This document shows positions 4,712 to 48,923 of a DNA stretch of 64,000 nt, in pieces (positions within the stretch are counted from its first letter, which is position 1; each line of letters starts with the position of its first letter). The DNA comes from a phage. A program made the position numbers and the translations under genes. The notes under the pieces were generated by a model. It made no database searches. It was given only the letters and a program-made list of their open reading frames with translations, and was not told where the DNA came from. Location of the stretch: the sequence record PZ445134.1; one strand, 5' to 3'.

Positions 4712-4734
4712 ATTATTTCCTCATTAGTTAATTC

Positions 4735-4760
4735 ATTCTATCATCCGCTTATAAAGCAAA
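4735..4760 (-). promoter_or_regulatory. candidate MotA-dependent middle promoter for 47-46
   Basis: minus-strand TTTGCTTTA (MotA box) followed after 11 nt by TAGAAT, about 25 nt upstream of gp47 ATG with SD GAGGAA. Confidence 0.4.
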
Positions 4761-8943: not shown

Positions 8944-9033
8944 ACATTGATAAACACTAAACTATATTGCGAATAAAATTCTGGACCAAAACGAAAAATC
9001 ATATCATTTATAGTATCCATAGTGTAATTCAAT

Positions 9034-9504
9034 TTAATCATGTTTCCACACCCCGTCGGTATTTGTCCAAAGTCGCTGATTATCTGATCCTCGCCACAGT
9101 TTTTTGGTCGGAAGATTTTTCTCATACTTCCCATCAATAATAACATCAACATATTTAAGCATTTCTAGTTGTTTAATATCTTCAAACTTATATCCTGTCC
9201 ACAACCAAATGCTTTTATTGGGATAAAGTTTTTTTACTGTTTGAACAATGCAATGAACAACATCTTGGTTATCAGGATAGAGAGGGTCTCCTCCAGTTAT
9301 AGTTAATCCTTCTATATAATCGTTATTCAAACATTCAATTAATTGTTCCAGCGTTTCACCGGTGAATGGGATACCATTTCTAGCGTTCCATGTTGATTTA
9401 TTATAACACCCCTCGCATTTATGCAAACAACCTGTAACGAAAAGAACGACCCTGCAACCGGGGCCATTCACAAAATCGCAAGGATAAAATCTATCATAAT
9501 TCAT
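9034..9504 (-). CDS. nrdG: anaerobic ribonucleotide reductase activating protein NrdG
   Basis: 156 aa; radical-SAM cysteine cluster GCLHKCEGCYN; overlaps nrdD stop. Confidence 0.88.
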   Translation of the reverse strand: MNYDRFYPCDFVNGPGCRVVLFVTGCLHKCEGCYNKSTWNARNGIPFTGETLEQLIECLNNDYIEGLTITGGDPLYPDNQDVVHCIVQTVKKLYPNKSIWLWTGYKFEDIKQLEMLKYVDVIIDGKYEKNLPTKKLWRGSDNQRLWTNTDGVWKHD

Positions 9505-10792
9505 TGGTGTTTAACCCTATGCATGATTTCTTTATTTTTGCCGAGATTAAATCCGCGTTCGTTCGGATTTCCAAGATAACCGCATGTTCTTCTTATTGTG
9601 TTCATCTTTTTAGGATCAGTTTCTCCGCAAACTGAACAAACAAATCCGTTTTCAGTAGGAGTCATTTCATGAGTACTTCCACATGTAAAACATTTATCTA
9701 CTGGCATATTAACACCAAAATAATCTAAATGTTGTGCAGCATAATCCCATACAGCCTCAAGACCTTTTAGGTTATTTTTCATATCAGGAAGTTCAACATA
9801 AGAAATGTGACCACCAGTCGCAATGAAATGATATGGCGCTTCACGAGAAATCTTTTCAAACGGAGTAATATTTTCTTCTACTGAAACGTGGAAACTATTA
9901 GTGTACCAGCCTTTATCAGTAACATCTTTTACACTTCCATATTTTTCGGTATCAAGTTTACAGAAGCGATAGCACAGGTTTTCAGCAGGAGTAGAATACA
10001 AGCTAAAAGCAAAACCGGTTCTTTCAGTCCACTGCTTAAGACGAGCATTCATTTTAGTCAAAATTTCCTGTCCAATATCACGTCCGACAAGAATATTCAA
10101 TTCGTGAATACCAATGTATCCTAAAGACACTGAACTTCTGCCGTTTTTAAATAACTCAATTATATCATCATCAGGTTTAAGACGAACCCCAAATGCACCT
10201 TCTTGGTAAAGAATAGGAGCAACAGTAGCTTTAACTCCTTTTAAGGAACTAATTCTACACATCAAAGCTTCAAAACACAGATCCATTCGTTCATTAAATA
10301 GCTCAACAAATTTCTGTTCATTGAATTGTGTTCCAATATAAGAATCTAACGCAATACGAGGAAGATTCAGTGTTACAACACCAAGATTATTACGCCCATC
10401 AAGAATTTCATTACCAGTCGAATCTTTCCATACGCTCAAAAAACTACGGCAACCCATTGGAGAAACAGGAACAGATGAACCGGTGATAGCTTTATTATTC
10501 TTAACTGAAATAATATCAGGATACATTCTTTTGCTTGCACATTCTAACGCAAGCTGCTTAATATCATAGTTCGGGTCGTCTTTATAAAGATTAACACCCT
10601 CTTCAACGAACATAACAAGTTTAGGGAAAATAGGAGTTATCCCATCGCGACCAAGACCTTTAATACGATTTTTCAGAATTGCTTTCTGAATCATTCGTTC
10701 AGTCCAGTCAGTTCCCGTGCCAAATGTAATGGTTACAAAAGGCGTTTGTCCGTTTGAACTGAAAAGTGTATTTACTTCATCATTATATTCAG
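9501..10792 (-). CDS. nrdD: anaerobic ribonucleoside-triphosphate reductase NrdD, exon 2
   Basis: C-terminal glycyl-radical motif RRTCGYLG and CxxC...CxxC zinc site; 5' boundary is the proposed 3' splice site. Confidence 0.8.
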
Positions 10793-11825
10793 CATGAGTC
10801 GCAAATTCATGCCCGTTTATATGAAACAACAAAATTTGGATAGTCCATAGATATGCAACGTTCTTTTATAGTGCTAGGATGAAAATTTAGCGCTTTAGCT
10901 GCTTCTATATAAGACGTATACTTAATACCGTCAACAACCACATATTCAGGAACTTTATGAATAGTAGTCTTAATACTCAAAACAAGAGGATGAGTTTCGA
11001 CTTCACTTTCAGTGCAATTTAAATATTCCGCTGCTTTTTTAAAACTTCTAAAAGTTTTATTTTTAAGCTTTATCGATACTTGTTTTTTACTTTTTCGACT
11101 ATTGATATTATTTTGCACATGTTCCTTAGATCTTCTGTTTTTAGCATAATATTCAGCCACAGAAGATTTTATATTGTTTTTATGAGATTCGGATAACACT
11201 TTACCCTTATGAGCATCTCTTAATTTTTGAATATGTTCTTCAGTATCCGGATGCTTATAAAACTTTTTACCGCCTATGGATTTATTTAAACATTTTTTGC
11301 TATAAAAATATTTACGTATGACCTCTTCTTCATGTTTTAATGCATCTTTATAACTATCAAATGTTTTTAAAATTATCCATTTAGTAGGTGTATCAGTTTT
11401 TAAGCGTTCATTTATATACTTAGATGACGTTGTGTAAGTTTTCCAGTTTGTGGGCTTGTTTTTAATTGTTCTAAATTTTTTATAACCGATATAAATGTCG
11501 CCATTAGAAAACTTAACTAAGTATGTAAATGCGTCTTTATCTTTTATTTTAGTACAACGTCTTTTTATCCATTTCATTGTTTCACCTCGTATTCATAAGA
11601 TAATCTTATTTATACAAGATGACTGCTGCATGTCGCCATGCAGATTAGACTATATCTTCATCTTTCGATGCCGGCCGTTTCGAATAGCATTAGCTTCTAT
11701 TCTACACCGCTACATTCATCACGGTTAGTCGTTAGGCATTTAGTTCAAAAGAACATTTAGCACGGGATTGTCTACTAGAGAGGTTCCCCGTTTAGACCGG
11801 TTTTACATGAGCCTGAATTAAATTA
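10793..11825 (-). mobile_element. group I intron in nrdD
   Basis: nrdD reading frame interrupted; intron 5' region contains CTAAACGGGGAACCTCTCTAGTAGACAATCCCGTGCTAAAT, which matches the conserved core of T4 td-type group I introns as I recall it; intron begins TAATTTAATTCAGGCTCATG after exon ...TATGAGT; 3' end chosen at a G that restores frame and gives 1033 nt. Confidence 0.7.
10807..11577 (-). CDS. GIY-YIG homing endonuclease (I-TevII-like) inside the nrdD intron
   Basis: 256 aa; N-terminal YLVKFSNGDIYIGY (GIY..YIG), downstream conserved Glu/Asn, C-terminal NUMOD-like helix-turn-helix; strong SD GAGGTGA before ATG. Confidence 0.75.
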   Translation of the reverse strand: MKWIKRRCTKIKDKDAFTYLVKFSNGDIYIGYKKFRTIKNKPTNWKTYTTSSKYINERLKTDTPTKWIILKTFDSYKDALKHEEEVIRKYFYSKKCLNKSIGGKKFYKHPDTEEHIQKLRDAHKGKVLSESHKNNIKSSVAEYYAKNRRSKEHVQNNINSRKSKKQVSIKLKNKTFRSFKKAAEYLNCTESEVETHPLVLSIKTTIHKVPEYVVVDGIKYTSYIEAAKALNFHPSTIKERCISMDYPNFVVSYKRA

Positions 11826-12363
11826 ACTCATACGCCTGGAATGCATCATATACGTCTTTTTCTGTTTTAGATTGGGCATAATTCAACGCATCAGCGATTT
11901 GCCATTTTTCTGCATCCTCAATATGTTTTGCATAGGTGCGTTTAACATAAGGAGAAAGTACTTTGTCTACATTAGCAAAAGTCGTTCCGCCGTATTGATG
12001 GGAAGCAACCTGTGCGGTAATTTGTGCCATAATTGCAGTAGCAACACCAATCGATTTAGGCGTTTCAATTTGAGCATTGCCTAATTTAAATCCATTCTCA
12101 AGCATCCCCTTTAAATCGACTAAACAGCAATTAGTAAACGGAAGAGCAGGAGAATAATCAATATCATGCATGTGAATGATTCCGCTTTCATGCGCATGCA
12201 TAATAAAAGACGGGACCATATTTTTGGCAATGTGCTTAGACACAATACCAGCCATAAGGTCCCGTTGAGTTGGAAAAACACGAGAATCTTTATTAGCATT
12301 CTCGTTCAAAAGATCTTTATTAGTTTTATGAATTAATCCTTCAATTTCTTTTTCAATTTTCAT
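11826..12363 (-). CDS. nrdD: anaerobic ribonucleoside-triphosphate reductase NrdD, exon 1
   Basis: N-terminal 179 aa of NrdD; in-frame TAA 7 nt into the intron. Confidence 0.8.
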
Positions 12364-12833
12364 TTTAAACTCTTTCTAAGCTGCTTTTTGAATGAAGCTA
12401 TTAATTGTGTTTTGGTATCAGATTCATTATATTCAAATCCTCTTTGAAGCATCTCGGCCATCATTTCCTCTTTACCTAGTCTTGAGAACTCTTTAGTTTT
12501 GTCTGGAACAAAATTAGGATGGATATTATTATCAGAATAATCTTGTTTCAAATAAGCGAGAAGAGCTTCAAGCCATTCGAGGTAGTCGACATCACGTCCT
12601 TTAAGACCGGAACGGTTGAACTTATGCTTCATTTGACCTTCTGCTGCGTTGCACAGATTACAGAGTAATCCACGAACTCTACCGGCTTTTGGCCCGTTTA
12701 ATTCATGGTCGTGGTCAAGATGGTTACCTTGAACATCAGGGTCTAATTCACGGTGGCAAATAGGACACTTACCGTTCTGTGCATCATAAAATTTTTGTTT
12801 TTCTTCTTTATATTTTGCGCCTGATAATAACAT
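12360..12833 (-). CDS. 49: endonuclease VII (Holliday junction resolvase) gp49
   Basis: 157 aa; cysteine/histidine zinc site CPICHRELDPDVQGNHLDHDH...CNLCN; matches T4 endo VII length and sequence as recalled. Confidence 0.9.
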   Translation of the reverse strand: MLLSGAKYKEEKQKFYDAQNGKCPICHRELDPDVQGNHLDHDHELNGPKAGRVRGLLCNLCNAAEGQMKHKFNRSGLKGRDVDYLEWLEALLAYLKQDYSDNNIHPNFVPDKTKEFSRLGKEEMMAEMLQRGFEYNESDTKTQLIASFKKQLRKSLK

Positions 12834-12838
12834 GATAA

Positions 12839-12871
12839 ACCCTTACCTTAAATAGATAAGGGTATTTATTA
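12839..12871 (-). promoter_or_regulatory. late-promoter-like TAATAAATA plus SD-sequestering hairpin upstream of gene 49
   Basis: minus strand TAATAAATA, then ACCCTTA-(11 nt loop)-TAAGGGT whose 3' arm is the SD, then ATG. Confidence 0.45.
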
Positions 12872-13294
12872 ACTTAAACGTCTTTCTAAATATTCAATGT
12901 ATTCTGCGGCTGCTTGCATCAGGTTACCTTCATAGCCGTCGTTATTTTCTTGTCCAGCTAATTTAGCTAATGCATAAGAAATTCGTTCACCTTCGAATTC
13001 ACCAAGTTTACTACCTAGCACATCCGCAATATCAGCCGAATCAATTTCTTCGAGTTCATCTATTGAATGGGATTCCCAGAAGCACCAAAGAGAAGTATCA
13101 CGGTCATAGATGCAAAGTTTCTCACCTGTGTTCAACATCACTTCGATAATGCCATGGCCGCCATAACCATCTTCGGTAGTAGTACCAATTACCTTGATGA
13201 TTGTTCCTTTCTTTAATTCAGGAAACTTGTCTTGTAGTTCTTCATCTTCTTTAACAATCTTGAACCATTTACCGCGAGTTTCAGAAATATTCAT
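12869..13294 (-). CDS. hypothetical acidic protein
   Basis: 141 aa ORF between 49 and nrdC. Confidence 0.45.
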   Translation of the reverse strand: MNISETRGKWFKIVKEDEELQDKFPELKKGTIIKVIGTTTEDGYGGHGIIEVMLNTGEKLCIYDRDTSLWCFWESHSIDELEEIDSADIADVLGSKLGEFEGERISYALAKLAGQENNDGYEGNLMQAAAEYIEYLERRLS

Positions 13295-32021: not shown

Positions 32022-32480
32022 TTATAGGATGGTAGTGAGCACCTTATATAATGATTTGCCCATTACGTATTCCCATTGAGAAGGTTTAATTAAAGCGAAT
32101 GCATCAAATTCAGGAATCTGTCGTCCGTCTGGGAATGTATGATAGGAATTACAAACACTGTTTCTGAATTGCTCGTGCTCTACAGGGATGGTATATAGGA
32201 ACAGATGAATATTCTTATTGTCTGAGTAACGATGTTCACCTAGGTCTTTCAGGAAGGCAGGGTCATATTGTGTAAACCCAGTTTCTTCTTCGCATTCACG
32301 AATAGCGGCTTTGATAGGAGATTCACCGGGCTCGACACGACCTTTAGGAATATCCCACCGATGAGCTAAAGAACCTTTAGGACGAGAACCAGTTACACGC
32401 CCCATGAATAATTCTTTATCTTCGGTAAGGAAAATAATACCGGCTGATAGTTCTTTCACTTTATTTTTCTTACTCATCAT
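32022..32480 (-). CDS. nudE: Nudix hydrolase NudE
   Basis: Nudix box GRVEPGESPIKAAIRECEEETG; start uncertain. Confidence 0.8.
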   Translation of the reverse strand: MMSKKNKVKELSAGIIFLTEDKELFMGRVTGSRPKGSLAHRWDIPKGRVEPGESPIKAAIRECEEETGFTQYDPAFLKDLGEHRYSDNKNIHLFLYTIPVEHEQFRNSVCNSYHTFPDGRQIPEFDAFALIKPSQWEYVMGKSLYKVLTTIL

Positions 32481-32721
32481 CTCGGTCCCATGATTGTTTA
32501 AAGATATCTCGTATAATAATTTCAACACATGTTTCTGTTGACGGACTTTCACTATCAGATATTTGGACCATATAATCAGAAATAGGTCGGAACATATCCA
32601 AGTCGCTTTCTAAATCTTCTTTGATTTTCTCTTCTGACGTTCCGGTATCATAGGAATACAGATAAGAATCACATGATTCTGATTTAATGTAAATTGCTAT
32701 ACTCATCTCAAATTCCTGCAT
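32470..32721 (-). CDS. hypothetical acidic protein
   Basis: 83 aa ORF. Confidence 0.45.
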   Translation of the reverse strand: MQEFEMSIAIYIKSESCDSYLYSYDTGTSEEKIKEDLESDLDMFRPISDYMVQISDSESPSTETCVEIIIRDIFKQSWDRDDE

Positions 32722-33194
32722 TCGGTAATAAAACGTTCAACTTCATTATTCTTGGCTTTTATCTTGTCTTTATGTTCTTGTAAACTACTTTTAATAAGAT
32801 TAATAATGATGGCGGCGGTACCGCCGCCAATGATGCCACCAACAACACTTATGATACTAGATGCTAATAAGATAGCAATAATATCAACAAAACCAAAAGA
32901 ACTCACCTTAGTACTGAAAAACCATATAGACGGTACAAATATAATCCATCCTGTTATCCATTGGCACTTATTGAAAAACTTTTCAAGCTCAGCTTGAGTT
33001 GTTCGTATTACTTCATCGATAGGTTGATATCCATTAATGTATCTGTTCACGATAATACCTGCTGGCTGGTCGATTTTAAATTCTTGACAAATATGTTTCA
33101 CTAAGTAGGATGGACATCCTGTCCAATCTACTGAATAGTATGAAATACCTTCATTGCCATCGACTATATTAGACCAATATGTTTTGTTAATCAT
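32703..33194 (-). CDS. membrane protein
   Basis: 163 aa with hydrophobic helices and C-terminal coiled segment. Confidence 0.45.
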   Translation of the reverse strand: MINKTYWSNIVDGNEGISYYSVDWTGCPSYLVKHICQEFKIDQPAGIIVNRYINGYQPIDEVIRTTQAELEKFFNKCQWITGWIIFVPSIWFFSTKVSSFGFVDIIAILLASSIISVVGGIIGGGTAAIIINLIKSSLQEHKDKIKAKNNEVERFITECRNLR

Positions 33195-33880
33195 TACCAG
33201 CCTTCCATAGGGAATTCCAGATAAACTTGAGCATTGACACGAATTTCATTGGTAATCTTTTTAACTCGGTCTGTATTACGAGATACACGTCCGAACCAAC
33301 GCCATCCATTACTAATTGCACGAGAACCAGTGTGCCATGTTTGCCAATCAAACTGAAGAAGAGTACGATCTGGAGCTTCCCATTTCTCTAGTTCACCTTT
33401 TTCGATTTTTTCGAGGACTTCTTTGTGCCACTGGCGATAGATAAGTTCGCCATCAGGAATCTGACTGAACTCTGCAGTTCCTGTTGCAAAATGAGTAGGA
33501 CACACATCAGCGTTAACAAGACCAAGAATATGTTCAGAATGGTAACGAGGGTTGTCATAATCAGGTTGTCCTGCAGTAATAAAGTGTTGACCGGCCGGAA
33601 TATCAGGGCGTGGAACATCATCATGGTGATACCCAGGAATAGCAGGATACCAACCGGGCATCAGCATGTGAACTCGTGAATCAAATACTACATCCGAGTC
33701 TTTCCAATCGTCAGGAAGATTTTGGATAAAGCTACGAGTAATTGGGCCACCATTATCAAAAGCAAAATTCAAATCGCAGTTAAAGAACATAGGCTCGTTT
33801 TTAATCTGGTCATTTTTAATCGCATGAGCAAAACCACCTACTGCACGAGCTTGACTATTAAACACTTTAGAACTATTCAT
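33194..33880 (-). CDS. hypothetical protein
   Basis: 228 aa; His/Asp-rich stretch; no motif recognised. Confidence 0.5.
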   Translation of the reverse strand: MNSSKVFNSQARAVGGFAHAIKNDQIKNEPMFFNCDLNFAFDNGGPITRSFIQNLPDDWKDSDVVFDSRVHMLMPGWYPAIPGYHHDDVPRPDIPAGQHFITAGQPDYDNPRYHSEHILGLVNADVCPTHFATGTAEFSQIPDGELIYRQWHKEVLEKIEKGELEKWEAPDRTLLQFDWQTWHTGSRAISNGWRWFGRVSRNTDRVKKITNEIRVNAQVYLEFPMEGW

Positions 33881-33881
33881 A

Positions 33882-34187
33882 TTATTTTCCTCGACATTCT
33901 TTAATGAAATTTTCTAGATTGGTAGATTCAATAGCTTTTTTACGAGCTTCTGCGTGTTCTTCTTCAGACAATTTACGTTTATAATTGACCCAGACATTAT
34001 GGTCGAAACTAGTCGTGGCATATAATAACAATGCTCCGACGAATAATAAAAACGGTGATAAGAATACAAAACCAGGAACACCATCCATATCGTAAGCCTT
34101 TTGTAATACTGCAACAGAAAGGGCTGCGTAAAAAAGCGATGCAAATATTGTTAAAAGACCAATTCGGTTGGTTTCGCCTAATTTCAT
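33882..34187 (-). CDS. membrane protein
   Basis: 101 aa; two hydrophobic helices; SD GAGGAG. Confidence 0.45.
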   Translation of the reverse strand: MKLGETNRIGLLTIFASLFYAALSVAVLQKAYDMDGVPGFVFLSPFLLFVGALLLYATTSFDHNVWVNYKRKLSEEEHAEARKKAIESTNLENFIKECRGK

Positions 34188-34199
34188 AATATTCTCCTC

Positions 34200-34247
34200 A
34201 TGTTTTAATAGGACTACTATAACATAGTCCTATCATGTTGTAAACAG
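34200..34247 (-). promoter_or_regulatory. early promoter with dyad symmetry (PeSL-like)
   Basis: minus strand GTTTAC, 17-18 bp, TATAGT; arms ATAGGACTA/TAGTCCTAT. Confidence 0.55.
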
Positions 34248-34257
34248 TTTTGTGAAG

Positions 34258-35214
34258 TTATTTGAAAGGTTTTACCATATGGAAATTTTGTTTGAAACGT
34301 TTGACGTAATCATCATGTCCTAAGCTTTGGTACATACTTACTACTTTGCTGTAGTTTTCCCAGGCATACTCACGGAACCAACCAGAAGTGATGCTTGTGC
34401 AGACTTTTTCTAATGCCATCATGAAACTGGCTTCAGGGTTAATTTTAAAGTCATTAGGAATCTGAGAACGTTCTAATGCTAGTACACATGATTCTTCATA
34501 TACACCGGCCAATTTGACCATTTCTGGTAATGATTCGAACTTCTCACGTGAGGTCATGACTTCAGAACCGTCTTTCATATAAAATGTATACGCTGGACGG
34601 TCTGTTAGTGCAATGGCTTCATGAATAGTATCATGGTCATACGTATAGATGTCATCTTTAAAGAACGCACTTTTAGAAGTGTCAAGAACTGGGTGAGCAT
34701 AGTTCAAGGTTTCTTTCTGGCGTTTCAGCATAATTTCAGTAAGTTCATCGTTCAGTGTAACACCTTTACCACGAAGATACTGAATATGGTTCATAGTCTT
34801 TAAAAAGAATGGATTATTTTTCTTGAAACGATGAGACATCTTAATTGCAAGACATATCTCAGGAGTTGCCCAGTAAAACCCGTTCAAACGGTCTTTAGAC
34901 AAATTTTTCTTGGCGTATTTTAAAAGGTCATAAGAAGACGTGAAATCTTCAGGAGTGAGTTCACCGACTAATTCACGGACATTAGTGATTGCCGGAACAA
35001 TATATGCTTCAAAATGAGTTTCGCGTCCATTATGGAAGCATTTGAAAACTTGGACACCAGGGTTATCTTGATGAACATATACGCCCATCATTTGATTTTT
35101 GAATGTATTCCAAGAACCTTGGTCTGCAATAAAGTCCCAGTCACTATTTTTGATAGCGTTAGAATCAATAAGACCATGATAGTGAAGTGCACGAGAACCA
35201 ATAACTAACATCAT
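34258..35214 (-). CDS. hypothetical protein (possible nucleotidyltransferase-like N-terminus)
   Basis: 318 aa; N-terminal IGSRALHYHG...SDWDF loosely resembles a GS...D.D signature; weak. Confidence 0.45.
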   Translation of the reverse strand: MMLVIGSRALHYHGLIDSNAIKNSDWDFIADQGSWNTFKNQMMGVYVHQDNPGVQVFKCFHNGRETHFEAYIVPAITNVRELVGELTPEDFTSSYDLLKYAKKNLSKDRLNGFYWATPEICLAIKMSHRFKKNNPFFLKTMNHIQYLRGKGVTLNDELTEIMLKRQKETLNYAHPVLDTSKSAFFKDDIYTYDHDTIHEAIALTDRPAYTFYMKDGSEVMTSREKFESLPEMVKLAGVYEESCVLALERSQIPNDFKINPEASFMMALEKVCTSITSGWFREYAWENYSKVVSMYQSLGHDDYVKRFKQNFHMVKPFK

Positions 35215-35242
35215 AATATTTTCCTCGGATTAATTCATTAAC

Positions 35243-35494
35243 TTAAATTTCACGACATGCGATATCATATTCATCCCAGAGGTCATCGTGTGAAGCCTCT
35301 ACCAATGGAACGATTGTACCATTTATGTCTTCATTATAAGGGCAAATTGTACAGTGTGCATCTTCGAATCGAATGCCTTTATGTTCAGATTTTTTATAAC
35401 GCATATCGAATATCTTTGCAAACTTTTCACGAGTAATGGTTTTAGCAACCACTTCGGTTCCAATACTTTCGTAATAAATCATTGTGGGCTCCAT
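35243..35494 (-). CDS. hypothetical protein
   Basis: 83 aa ORF. Confidence 0.45.
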   Translation of the reverse strand: MEPTMIYYESIGTEVVAKTITREKFAKIFDMRYKKSEHKGIRFEDAHCTICPYNEDINGTIVPLVEASHDDLWDEYDIACREI

Positions 35495-35504
35495 TTAATT
35501 TGAT

Positions 35505-35542
35505 AGGACTACTATAACATAGCCCTATCTTGTTGTAAACTG
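35505..35542 (-). promoter_or_regulatory. early promoter with dyad symmetry (PeSL-like)
   Basis: minus strand GTTTAC; arms TAGGACTA/TAGCCCTA around -10. Confidence 0.5.
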
Positions 35543-35544
35543 TT

Positions 35545-35742
35545 TTAGCAAGAATAACTAGATGATACCCAGCCTTGAACAGTAATACTATTATTTGATA
35601 CCGAGATTGCATTCTGGAGATTCAGACCTGCGTTATCTTCAATCCATAATGTAACTTCTTCGCGTTCTTCTGTTGCAATTTGGAACAGGTTTTCTAGGGC
35701 AGCTACTGCCGTACGTACAGCACAATCTAATTCACGAGACAT
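35545..35742 (-). CDS. small protein, C-terminal GW(V/I)(S/A)SSxxC family member
   Basis: 65 aa ending ...VQGWVSSSYSC. Confidence 0.45.
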   Translation of the reverse strand: MSRELDCAVRTAVAALENLFQIATEEREEVTLWIEDNAGLNLQNAISVSNNSITVQGWVSSSYSC

Positions 35743-35751
35743 ATGATTTCC

Positions 35752-36024
35752 TTAGCAAGTGTGAGAAGATGCAATCCAACCACCGGTTTCGAGGCTCAGG
35801 TTGTAGTCGTATTGGTAAACGTCAGCCCATTCAGCATAGCCGTTTTTTGTACAACGTTCAAGATCGGCTTTAAGCTGTCCTGGTGAATGATAAGTTCCAC
35901 CCATACCATAAGCTGGATACAAGTCGAATGATGTGTTTTGTTTATCAGCAATTTCTTTGGCAGCCTCAATAGCTGCATAGATTTTTGCTACGGCTTCAGC
36001 CAGTTCGGTTTGTTCTTTAGACAT
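35752..36024 (-). CDS. small protein, C-terminal GW(V/I)(S/A)SSxxC family member
   Basis: 90 aa ending ...TGGWIASSHTC; shares GGTY and IAD motifs with 36034..36339. Confidence 0.5.
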   Translation of the reverse strand: MSKEQTELAEAVAKIYAAIEAAKEIADKQNTSFDLYPAYGMGGTYHSPGQLKADLERCTKNGYAEWADVYQYDYNLSLETGGWIASSHTC

Positions 36025-36033
36025 AATGATTCC

Positions 36034-36339
36034 TTAGCACAACGCAGAAGACGAAACCCAAGCACCTTCAGTAATAACGTAACCATTACCTTCACGCTTA
36101 ACATCGCCACCATTATTTTCAATTTCATCTTTCATCCACTGGGATACGATTTCACCCTTAGGATAATAAGTACGACCGCTACCATAATCACCTACAGAAA
36201 ATGATACGGCGTATTGGTCTGCGATCTTTGTTGCTTCTTCTTCGATACGTTCAGCTTGATTCAGAAGTTTATAAATTGCATCTGAAGCGGATTTGGCATC
36301 ATTAAACTCTGGTACTTTAATTTCAATAATCTTACTCAT
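36034..36339 (-). CDS. small protein, C-terminal GW(V/I)(S/A)SSxxC family member
   Basis: 101 aa ending ...EGAWVSSSALC. Confidence 0.5.
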   Translation of the reverse strand: MSKIIEIKVPEFNDAKSASDAIYKLLNQAERIEEEATKIADQYAVSFSVGDYGSGRTYYPKGEIVSQWMKDEIENNGGDVKREGNGYVITEGAWVSSSALC

Positions 36340-36695
36340 TTTCTACATTCCTTAATAAAGTTTTCTATTGTTTCATTTTCACGTCTAGCTAGGAGTTCAT
36401 TATAACTAATCATTTGAGAAGCGTAAACCTTTTTATTTTTCTTGTTATGGCTTATAAAATCGTAGTAAAAATAGACTACAGTACAAAATGACGCGATGGA
36501 TGCAAAGGCTTGGGTATACCGTAAGTCCTGCCATTGGTCTGTGAATCCACCAGTGTTCCCTATAAATCCTAATACAACGCCGTCAATAAGAAATCCAACT
36601 AATCCAAAGGCAAATCCCATGCTAATACTCATAATAAAAATTAGAATGTTCTCGCCAAGAGAAGGCCATACGGTTAAGAGTTGAGGCTTTTGCAT
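36336..36695 (-). CDS. membrane protein
   Basis: 119 aa with 2-3 hydrophobic helices. Confidence 0.45.
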   Translation of the reverse strand: MQKPQLLTVWPSLGENILIFIMSISMGFAFGLVGFLIDGVVLGFIGNTGGFTDQWQDLRYTQAFASIASFCTVVYFYYDFISHNKKNKKVYASQMISYNELLARRENETIENFIKECRK

Positions 36696-39858: not shown

Positions 39859-40097
39859 TCAAAAACGCTACTCGGCTTACGGCAAAGATATTTCCTCGAA
39901 TCGATAATTCTGTGCGCCGTTTCTGCTGTGATGTAAGGGGATATTAACAAATCGTAAAGATTTATTAAGACCAGTCCTTACGCAGGGAACATCAGTCCGA
40001 CGACTTACCGGTAGCGACCCGGTTTCTTGTTTGGTGCGCCGGTGAATGCTGGTAATCAGTCTTCATACGACGGCTTGACTATATAATAGTCTTCATT

Positions 40098-40172
40098 TGG
40101 TATCCCGCCCTGGGATCGAACCAGGACCGCAAACTTAGAAGGATCGTATGCTATCCATTACACCAGCGGGAT
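40098..40172 (-). tRNA. tRNA-Arg (anticodon TCT)
   Basis: hand-folded cloverleaf: acceptor ATCCCGC/GCGGGAT, D-loop AATGGATA, anticodon loop CTTCTAA, T-arm CCTGG-TTCGATC-CCAGG, encoded CCA. Confidence 0.7.
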
Positions 40173-40177
40173 GTAGT

Positions 40178-40254
40178 TGGTGACCCCGACCAGATTTGAA
40201 CTGGTAACCTTTCCCTTATGAGGGGACTGCTGCTAACCATTGAGCTACAGGGCC
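40178..40254 (-). tRNA. tRNA with anticodon CAT (Met or Ile2-type), atypical D-arm
   Basis: acceptor GGCCCTG/CGGGGTC with two G-U pairs, anticodon loop CTCATAA, T-arm ACCAG-TTCAAAT-CTGGT, encoded CCA; D-stem pairs poorly. Confidence 0.5.
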
Positions 40255-40316
40255 TAAATAACTTTCTATTATGAAAGGCACTTTAGAGCACCTTTGGTAA
40301 TAGAGGGTATGAATTA

Positions 40317-48111: not shown

Positions 48112-48627
48112 ATGGCACAAATACTTCCTTTAAATACCGACTTAGGAGAAGACATGGAAGGGGCGTCTATTGACGTCCTTTTTACTCCACAGTTAGAAAC
48201 AACCGAAACTTTAGTGTCAATAAATATAACAGATTATGAACCGACACAAGGCATTACGGTAGATGGTAATCGTTTATACGGAACATATGAAAGTGTGTTT
48301 AGCTTTTCTTCGGATGCATTGAAATACCGATTAAATGACGATTTTGAAACCGCATCTTCATGGGACGATTTACCAAAAGATGAATCCACACAGTTATATT
48401 TGTGGAGAGCTCCTCAGAATCTTCGTAAAGTGTTTAGTTATACGGTTGAAATGATTTATAACCACCAAGAAGAAAGTTCATCAGGCGGCTCAAGAAGTGA
48501 CTCTAGTACAGAACCTCCGCCAGCTCCAGTACAAAAAACTCTTACTAAGGTTTATACAAAAACTATAGTAGGAAATTGGAGCAAATGGGCTCAACAATTA
48601 CGAAACTATGTTTATGCGAGGCCATAA
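48112..48627 (+). CDS. hypothetical protein (5.1 position)
   Basis: 171 aa ORF between 5 and 5.4. Confidence 0.5.
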
Positions 48628-48629
48628 AA

Positions 48630-48923
48630 ATGTCTGGATTAAGTTACGACCAGTGCGTTACAACAGGTCATGAAGCATGGCCTCCTACAGTAATTAATGC
48701 TTCTCAATCTAAAGTATTCACCGGCGGTATTCCTGTTCTTGTAGCAGGAGACCAAATAACACCTCATACAGAAATTAAAAAACCGTACGAGACTCATGGT
48801 GGTGTTACTGAACCTCGTACATCTAAAGTATATGTCACCGGTAAAAAGGCCGTTCAAATGGCTGACCCAATTTCATGCGGGGATACTGTTTCTCAGGCCT
48901 CGTCAAAAGTCTTTATAAAATAG
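48630..48923 (+). CDS. 5.4: PAAR-repeat spike tip protein gp5.4
   Basis: 97 aa after trimming to MSGLSYDQ; same length as T4 gp5.4. Confidence 0.75.

Follow-up and report, generated by a model that had tools for sequence, protein, structure and literature searches.

The nrdD locus and its interrupted reading frame

The window, the whole 64,000-nucleotide stretch of phage DNA that was analysed (record PZ445134.1), carries the locus in the setting of a T4-like phage (Tequatrovirus). Its first 25 kb are a mosaic match, at 96-97%, to T-even genomes, and the 1.4 kb around the nrdD element is 98-99% identical to many T-even phages of Escherichia, Shigella and Salmonella. The local genes, all of them minus-strand, keep the order known from T4 (nrdG, nrdD, gene 49, pin and nrdC), with nrdD divided by an insert:

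9034..9504, minus strand: nrdG (gene list)
9501..10780, minus strand: nrdD exon 2, 1280 nt (splice reconstruction, alignment to T4)
10781..11825, minus strand: predicted group I intron, 1045 nt, beginning UAAUUUAAUU and ending ...AUAAUG, whose last base, G10781, is the terminal (omega) G
11826..12363, minus strand: nrdD exon 1, 538 nt, that is, 179 codons plus 1 nt (ORF list, junction against intron-less RB14 and PDB 1H78)
12360..12833, minus strand: gene 49 (gene list)
12869..13294, minus strand: pin (gene list)

The NrdD frame starts at 12363, meets a TAA (11820..11818) two codons into the insert, and is open again in the ORF list from 10832 to 9501, in agreement with the first-pass annotation of this DNA, which had the frame stopping after 179 codons and reopening downstream. 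The insert begins TAATTTAATTCAGGCTCATG at 11825, again as first annotated, so that it follows the first base of codon 180 (...AYE / YEV..., nucleotide 538 of the CDS), and the last seven nucleotides of exon 1, UAUGAGU (11832..11826), are the 5′ strand of the P1 helix described below. Nucleotide identity to T4 is 93.5% for exon 1 and 94.6% for exon 2, a dN of 0.008 points to strong purifying selection on the exons, and the exon 2 motifs, glycyl-radical RRTCGYLG and PMGCRSF, are intact. Pfam detected no further homing endonucleases in those stretches of the window that are without a T4 counterpart.

Predicted catalytic core, 3′-terminal module and splice sites

With relaxed filters, a local Rfam scan aligned the locus to the entire group I model RF00028 (Intron_gpI; model positions 1-253 of 253). 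The match scored 71.8 bits (E 5.5e-18), where the gathering score is 50. For the T4 nrdD intron the equivalent match reaches 105.3 bits, so that the score here is 33 bits lower. In its default "gathering" mode, Rfam reported no intron on either the 64-kb window or a 4-kb segment (9000..13000), a miss that we attribute to loss at the speed filters because the relaxed-filter score passes the gathering score. The first-pass annotation had proposed a group I covariance model as a check on its reading, and that check was passed, while the default filters would have given a false negative. Helices were placed by reading the sequence against T4 and then compared helix by helix by script:

11626..11857, minus strand: ribozyme core match to RF00028, P1 exon strand through P9
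11832..11826/11812..11806, minus strand: P1, UAUGAGU/GCUCAUG, 7 bp, with U11826.G11812 at the splice site
11800..11795/11676..11671, minus strand: P3 (helix table against T4, as for P4, P5, P6, P6a, P7, P8 and P9)
11791..11786/11767..11762, minus strand: P4
11781..11779/11773..11771, minus strand: P5
11761..11760/11737..11736, minus strand: P6
11754..11751/11746..11743, minus strand: P6a
11730..11726/11652..11648, minus strand: P7
11725..11722/11709..11706, minus strand: P7.1, ACCG/CGGT
11702..11697/11687..11682, minus strand: P7.2, GAAUAG/CUAUUC
11670..11667/11662..11659, minus strand: P8
11643..11637/11632..11626, minus strand: P9
10781..10829, minus strand: 3′-terminal structural module, overlapping the ORF end (T4 comparison, fold, helix table)

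P1, P3-P6, P6a, P7, P7.1, P7.2, P8, P9, P9.0 and P10 are all Watson-Crick or G.U paired both here and in T4, and P1 is the pairing of TATGAGT with GCTCATG that had been proposed from the sequence, seven base pairs with a U.G at the splice site. Across the helices of equal length, with P9.0 and the 3′ hairpin included, 38 of 53 pairs are the same as in T4, one has a one-sided change, 14 are compensatory (two each in P3, P4 and P7.1, three in P6a, one in P9.0 and four in the 3′ hairpin) and none is broken, a covariation that rests on two lineages and hence on few independent events. The minimum free energy (MFE) fold of the ORF-deleted intron gives P1, P3-P6a, P7.1, P7.2, P8 and P9, the same helices as the fold of the ORF-deleted T4 intron. 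P7.1 and P7.2 are two extra hairpins between the 5′ strand of P7 and the 3′ strand of P3, and such hairpins define subgroup IA. By every feature that sequence can test, the insert thus appears to be a group I intron with an IA-type P7.1/P7.2 architecture. The core match ends at 11626, in P9, 49 nt upstream of the ATG of the intron ORF. The catalytic core lies wholly upstream of the ORF, and only peripheral 3′-terminal hairpins overlap the ORF end, contrary to the earlier supposition that the 3′ catalytic core would overlap the coding sequence.

The 3′-terminal module opens with an 18-nt block (10829..10812, TTGTTTCATATAAACGGG) that is identical to T4 within an ORF otherwise 64% identical, and this block contains a small 4-bp hairpin, GUUU/AAAC (10827..10824/10818..10815). 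It is followed by a P9.2-like 6-bp hairpin, GCAUGA/UCAUGC (10812..10807/10797..10792), which holds the ORF stop codon and in which four of the six pairs differ from the T4 stem GUAGAG/CUCUAC, all of them compensated. The labels P9.1-like and P9.2-like are given by analogy with the td intron and may differ from the published sunY nomenclature. After this hairpin comes the tail CUGAAUAUAAU, also written CUGAAUAUAAUG, and the T4 td intron has a homologous 3′ hairpin and tail (...CUGAACAUAAUG). Two further pairings reach this end of the intron: in P9.0, AU at 10783..10782 pairs with AU at 11645..11644, one pair being compensatory (A-U in T4, U-A here), and in the 4-bp P10, positions +2..+5 of exon 2, UGAA (10779..10776), pair with UUCA (11817..11814). 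Michel et al. reportedly found in 1992 that core activation in the sunY intron depends on its remote 3′ end.

The 3′ splice site was chosen by comparison with homologues. With exon 1 joined to exon 2 at 11826|10780, the CDS is 1818 nt long and encodes a 605-aa NrdD (...FQAYE-Y-EVNTLF...), the predicted ligated junction being ...UAUGAGU|AUGAAGUAAAU, whose exon-1 side is GCGUAUGAGU. A 400-nt query of joined exon sequence found a single unbroken match, at up to 96% identity, in 618 phage records (counted where this match covers at least 80% of the query), and these records hold intron-less nrdD alleles. The intron-less nrdD of RB14 (1818 nt, ...TATGAAT|ATGAAGTAAAT) is collinear base for base, and intron-less alleles set the insertion boundaries at the DNA level at 11825 and 10781. 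Aligning the spliced protein to intron-less homologues, as the first reading had advised, gave no gaps against RB14 NrdD (98.3% identity); the same held against spliced T4 NrdD (98.8%), and a residue 1-605 alignment, running across the junction, was obtained with the T4 NrdD of the crystal structures (1H78 and related entries), which has 605 residues. Because of the junction in the 618 records, the RB14 collinearity, the gap-free RB14 and T4 products and the 1H78 alignment, the predicted 3′ splice site is 10781|10780. In T4, exon 1 is also 538 nt and the 1033-nt intron ends ...CACATTG|ATGAAG, at a position homologous to 10781.

The in-frame 3′ sites ending in G at 10814, 10802 and 10793, between which the first-pass annotation had left the choice, give proteins of 616, 612 and 609 aa, against 605 aa for 10781, and were rejected as adding 11, 7 or 4 residues absent from every homologue compared. 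The end at G10781 lies 12 nt beyond 10793, and the span first proposed, 10793..11825, is short by the same 12 nt: its 1033 nt equal the length of the T4 intron, a length that was rejected for the window since indels bring the intron here to 1045 nt. The distance from the ORF stop to the splice site changes as well, with 26 intron nucleotides remaining 3′ of the stop codon (10809..10807) and not the roughly 14 estimated before.

The putative intron-borne endonuclease and the proposed mechanism

The intron contains an ORF, of the length (256 aa) and in the place first described (11577..10807), preceded by expression signals:

10807..11577, minus strand: I-TevII-like GIY-YIG homing endonuclease gene, 256 aa (ORF list, homology)
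11582..11622, minus strand: hairpin sequestering the Shine-Dalgarno sequence of the ORF (RNA fold -20.4 kcal/mol, z -4.06)
11614..11607, minus strand: T4 late-promoter box TATAAATA, in the 5′ arm of the hairpin

The product aligns along its entire length with T4 I-TevII at 56% identity and 72% similarity (E 2e-101), the two being collinear (256 against 258 aa), and it matches the homing endonuclease family PHROG 314 (E 3.8e-29). Pfam assigns SegE_GIY-YIG (PF19835) to residues 9-106 at 27.5 bits (cutoff 25) and NUMOD1 (PF07453) to residues 171-193 at 25.3 bits (cutoff 22.8), with a weak I-HmuI NUMOD-like match at residues 174-194, which bears out the NUMOD-like C-terminus noticed earlier. The GIY...YIG motif noticed with it holds in part: the YIG is present (residues 29-31), while the literal GIY reads FTY (17-19), the same degenerate form as in T4 I-TevII, and the SegE_GIY-YIG model passes where the canonical Pfam GIY-YIG model (PF01541) stays below threshold (10.5 against 22.6 bits). 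E83 and N98 do not vary in a three-protein alignment; from their pattern, we take them for the Glu and Asn that are conserved in GIY-YIG enzymes. The dN/dS ratio against I-TevII is approximately 0.26, with dS saturated.

The Shine-Dalgarno sequence GAGG (11588..11585) is buried in the hairpin directly upstream of the ORF, and the late promoter is annotated likewise in a related record. I-TevII has the same arrangement of hairpin and late promoter, in which early read-through transcripts cannot translate the ORF and late transcripts starting inside the hairpin can (PMC2988022). The segment just upstream of the ORF was compared with the homing site, a likeness reported for T4 as a putative operator or relic of invasion, and its best match of 13/20 was at the level of shuffled intron sequence. 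This segment is identical to that of T4.

The records that share this ORF fall into distinct classes. Its protein is at least 95% identical in 45 phage records. In 41 of these, which come from a variety of hosts and countries, identity is 99% or more, and in two of the 45 the match to the ORF is broken into two pieces, which suggests a frameshift. A second class of some two dozen records stands at 55-57% (T4, RB55, RB59, PST, fPS-2, U5 and a few others), and the phage collection held no intermediate forms between the classes at 95% or more and at approximately 56%. The allele tally is thus about 45 records for this lineage against about 24 for the other, many of the latter being T4 or its close relatives (RB55, RB59). 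Two related records, NC_054937 and OL960581, annotate two NrdD CDSs and a "homing endonuclease" with no intron, and most other records of the lineage, going by product names, likewise have nrdD as two genes. The missing intron annotation in the records that were opened would be explained by the loss at the default Rfam filters.

The full-length RF00028 match, the restored 605-aa NrdD and the 56% identity to I-TevII together uphold the core of the first-pass annotation, an nrdD interrupted by a group I intron with a GIY-YIG endonuclease. We hold it highly probable that the element is a mobile group I intron of a sister lineage to the T4 nrdD (sunY) intron, at the same position in nrdD and with an I-TevII-like endonuclease. 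The T4 intron is reported among the self-splicing, mobile introns of that phage (PMC2988022), and we infer self-splicing, endonuclease activity and homing here from homology with T4. The exon-1 end UAUGAGU of the pre-mRNA would pair with the internal guide GCUCAUG to form P1, with U.G at the splice site, and the core P3-P9, acting as in T4, would bind guanosine and cut after U11826. The 3′-terminal hairpins, the 2-bp P9.0 and the 4-bp P10 would bring in the remote 3′ end, and exon ligation after G10781 would restore the 605-aa NrdD. On early read-through transcripts, the ribosome-binding site of the ORF would be locked in the hairpin, to be freed on late transcripts from the TATAAATA box inside it. 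The endonuclease would then cut intron-less nrdD in co-infecting phages, and repair would copy the intron in, following the T4 paradigm of homing with co-conversion of flanking exon sequence. T4 I-TevII itself makes its cut some 13-15 nt downstream of the insertion point. Since nrdD is expected to be dispensable in aerobic growth, a splicing-defective copy could persist for a while.

Two other readings concern the product of the gene. Splicing at 10793, as the sole or an alternative site, would give a 1033-nt intron and a 609-aa NrdD with SEYND replacing Y180. This site (...UCAUG|CUGAAU) offers the same AU+G as the 10781 site and an equally good P9.0; its product is in frame, and a 6-bp P10, found in the MFE fold, is possible between CUGAAU at its exon start and AUUCAG (11819..11814), against 4 bp at 10781. 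However, the extra SEYN residues are absent from RB14, T4 and PDB 1H78 NrdD and from the 618-record junction, the intron-less alleles set the boundaries at 11825 and 10781 and not at 10793, G10793 is a paired base on the 3′ side of the conserved P9.2 hairpin, and T4 has no G at the equivalent position, all of which makes use of this site very unlikely. A free-standing endonuclease gene inserted into a truly split nrdD, whose halves would be separate polypeptides or dead, is how the annotation of NC_054937 and OL960581 could be read, and the silence of Rfam in its default mode would suit it. Against this stand the full-length group I match above the gathering score, the comparison with T4, in which 14 pairs show compensatory change and none is broken, the exact in-frame restoration of a 605-aa protein and the strong purifying selection on the exons; moreover, the second CDS as annotated in such records starts well inside exon 2 and would lose conserved residues. 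We give the split gene almost no credence.

Splicing could also be intact in an element whose endonuclease is inactive, leaving it immobile and decaying like I-TevIII in T4. The degenerate FTY...YIG with its sub-threshold canonical Pfam score, the two records in which the ORF matches in two pieces, as if frameshifted, and the far greater divergence from T4 of intron and ORF than of the exons all point in this direction. Yet T4 I-TevII, which is counted as active (PMC2988022), shares this degenerate motif and is of the same length, and the dN/dS of about 0.26, the invariant E83 and N98 (the presumed conserved Glu and Asn) and the persistence of an intact ORF, at 99% identity or more, in 41 records of varied host and country argue for a functional enzyme. 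An inactive endonuclease seems unlikely.

Relation to other phage introns

The intron resembles the T4 nrdD (sunY) intron in its host gene and identical insertion point (AYE|YEV), and in the order of its parts, from a P1-P9 core through the regulatory hairpin with its late promoter and the ORF to a short 3′ module, which consists in both of P9.2, P9.0 and the terminal G. The P1, P7 and P9 stems and the 18-nt block at the ORF end are identical, whereas P6a, P7.1, P7.2, P8 and P9.2 differ in sequence or length. The T4 intron is 1033 nt long against 1045 nt here, with P5 of 4 bp against 3 and P8 of 7 bp against 4. The cores are 72.5-73.7% identical and the ORFs 64% in nucleotides and 56% in amino acids. 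Divergence from T4 is distributed as follows:

nrdD exons: 93.5-94.6% nucleotide identity, dS 0.29
intron core: about 73% nucleotide identity, dS not applicable
intron ORF: 64% nucleotide identity, dS about 1.5, saturated
nrdG: 77% nucleotide identity, dS 0.86
gene 49: 82% nucleotide identity, dS 1.44

On these comparisons, the intron belongs to a lineage that is sister to the T4 nrdD intron and has diverged from it, and the separation of the two lineages long predates that of the exons in which they now lie, dS being about 1.5 in the intron ORF and 0.29 in the exons. These data fit the picture of a "recent transfer of old introns" that Sandegren and Sjöberg are said to have drawn in 2004.

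A second relationship is to the td intron of T4, to which the following stretch is identical at every position:

11755..11796, minus strand: 42 nt, 42/42 to T4 td, from the last part of the P3 5′ strand through P4 and P5 to the P6 5′ strand

The T4 nrdD intron differs from the present one over these 42 nt. Elsewhere, the td intron is 87-95% identical in short stretches, in the J6/7-P7 and P7′-P9 regions, and it has a homologous 3′ tail, with a P9.2-like hairpin whose loop is AUUNNCGAC, followed by CUGAAYAUAAUG. It differs in lying in another host gene, in carrying its ORF in the P6 loop and not 3′ of P9, and in having a P2. Its endonuclease, I-TevI, is also of the GIY-YIG class and under late-promoter and hairpin control, but is only approximately 28% identical and has a zinc-finger linker. 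Introns of the td kind are common (209 records), and at least three genomes (Isf-Pm2, BCH953P4 and vB_Eco-B1.1) are listed for both this nrdD intron lineage and a td intron. Given genomes that carry both introns and the 42-nt td identity, ectopic gene conversion between introns is plausible, the evidence being suggestive and short of proof. Recombination between T4 introns in the laboratory was reportedly described by Bryk and Belfort in 1990. A fuller scenario is possible, though we put it forward tentatively and think it rather doubtful as a whole: an old separate lineage, now the commoner natural allele, would have had its P3-P6 region gene-converted from a co-resident td intron, its endonuclease may have diverged from I-TevII in recognition or cleavage, and the 10793 site may yield a minor NrdD isoform. 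The P3-P6 replacement, if true, would be a natural case of "domain shuffling" between phage introns.

More distant relatives differ in site or in life style. Group I introns with related cores (68-83% identical over the conserved half) occur in nrdD of the Justusliebigviruses PD06 and KKP_3264 and of the Krischvirus phiS, where they carry no endonuclease ORF and lie at another nrdD site (SPMG|CRSF, at the active-site cysteine). RF00028 matches PD06 and KKP_3264 at 70-73 bits and gives no match to phiS at E <= 0.001. The Pfam model that best matches the catalytic domain here, SegE_GIY-YIG, is that of the SegE-type Seg endonucleases of T-even phages, which lie between genes, outside introns, and work through marker exclusion, with no splicing involved. 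Distant tblastn matches at 31-34% identity are homing endonucleases of Acinetobacter and Cronobacter phages, which may be free-standing.

Introns with homing endonucleases in the nrdD, td and nrdB genes of T-even phages are the founding examples of group I introns in bacteria and have been textbook material since the 1980s, and the present intron is, so far as the searchable literature shows, an undescribed member of this very well known kind. The scientific gain is accordingly small, and its value lies mainly in annotation and as material on intron evolution. The exact junction, 11826|10780, allows nrdD to be joined correctly in annotation, and automated pipelines with default Rfam filters will go on missing the intron. 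For the T-even family, two intron lineages at one site, the younger exons that hold them and the td-identical patch form a natural data set for the study of intron transfer and of recombination between introns.

Detection of the intron and the segment preceding its endonuclease gene

In its default gathering mode, Rfam did not report the nrdD intron, either from positions 9000-13000 or from the whole window. The full score of the intron against the group I covariance model RF00028 is 71.8 bits, above the gathering score of 50, indicating that the default search missed the intron because of its speed filters. The segment directly 5′ of the endonuclease ATG (11597-11578, TATGAATACGAGGTGAAACA) is nearly identical to that of T4, differing at the last base. 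For the T4 equivalent, it has been proposed that the region acts as an operator resembling the homing site and is a relic left when the endonuclease gene invaded. When the window segment was compared with the exon junction, the similarity was 13/20, which is not above that of shuffled sequence.

Divergence from T4 within and around nrdD

Comparison of positions 9034-12833 with T4 gave 94% nucleotide identity (dS 0.29) for the nrdD exons, whereas the flanking genes nrdG (77%, dS 0.86) and gene 49 (82%, dS 1.44), as well as the intron itself, are far more diverged. The low divergence of the exons suggests either that lineages have recently exchanged nrdD sequence or that the gene is unusually strongly constrained. 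Several free-standing endonuclease genes of T4 are absent from the window, mobB along with a-gt, and no homing endonuclease gene besides the intron ORF was found in the examined parts. At the two-tRNA locus, T4 instead carries a cluster of eight tRNAs plus segB, and the Met(cat) tRNA is not among the annotated tRNAs of T4. The differences are located as follows.

4713-4749, 9484-9504, 21310, 40036-40305 and 48625-48631, positions concerned by the absence of mobB (with a-gt), mobC, mobD, segB and segC
40098-40254 (-), two tRNA genes only, Arg-tct and Met-cat
32471-36684, ~4.2 kb encoding several ORFs and lacking an equivalent within coordinates 30-100 kb of T4
34258..35214, ORF within this region with DUF7275/DUF7277 (Pfam); other ORFs of the region have no Pfam match

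Related introns in other phages

In Aeromonas phage 2L372X, a relative of the intron core divides the gene for the large subunit of terminase, and the annotation shows this gene as two CDSs, both named "terminase large subunit". In nrdD itself, related but ORF-less group I introns split the gene in the Justusliebigvirus phages PD06 and Serratia KKP_3264 and in Krischvirus phiS, and these records annotate nrdD as two genes, as do the checked records of the window's lineage.

2L372X locus (L007) 555-797, terminase intron, RF00028, 85.3 bits
PD06 locus (L006) 544-829, ORF-less nrdD intron
KKP_3264 locus (L008) 544-818, ORF-less nrdD intron
phiS locus (L010) ~268-381, ORF-less nrdD intron

The PD06 and KKP_3264 introns scored 70-73 bits with RF00028, which gave no match to the phiS intron at E <= 0.001. 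All three nrdD introns are inserted at ...SPMG|CRSF..., beside the active-site cysteine. Since this site differs from that of the window's intron, nrdD carries introns at two or more independent insertion sites across phage groups.
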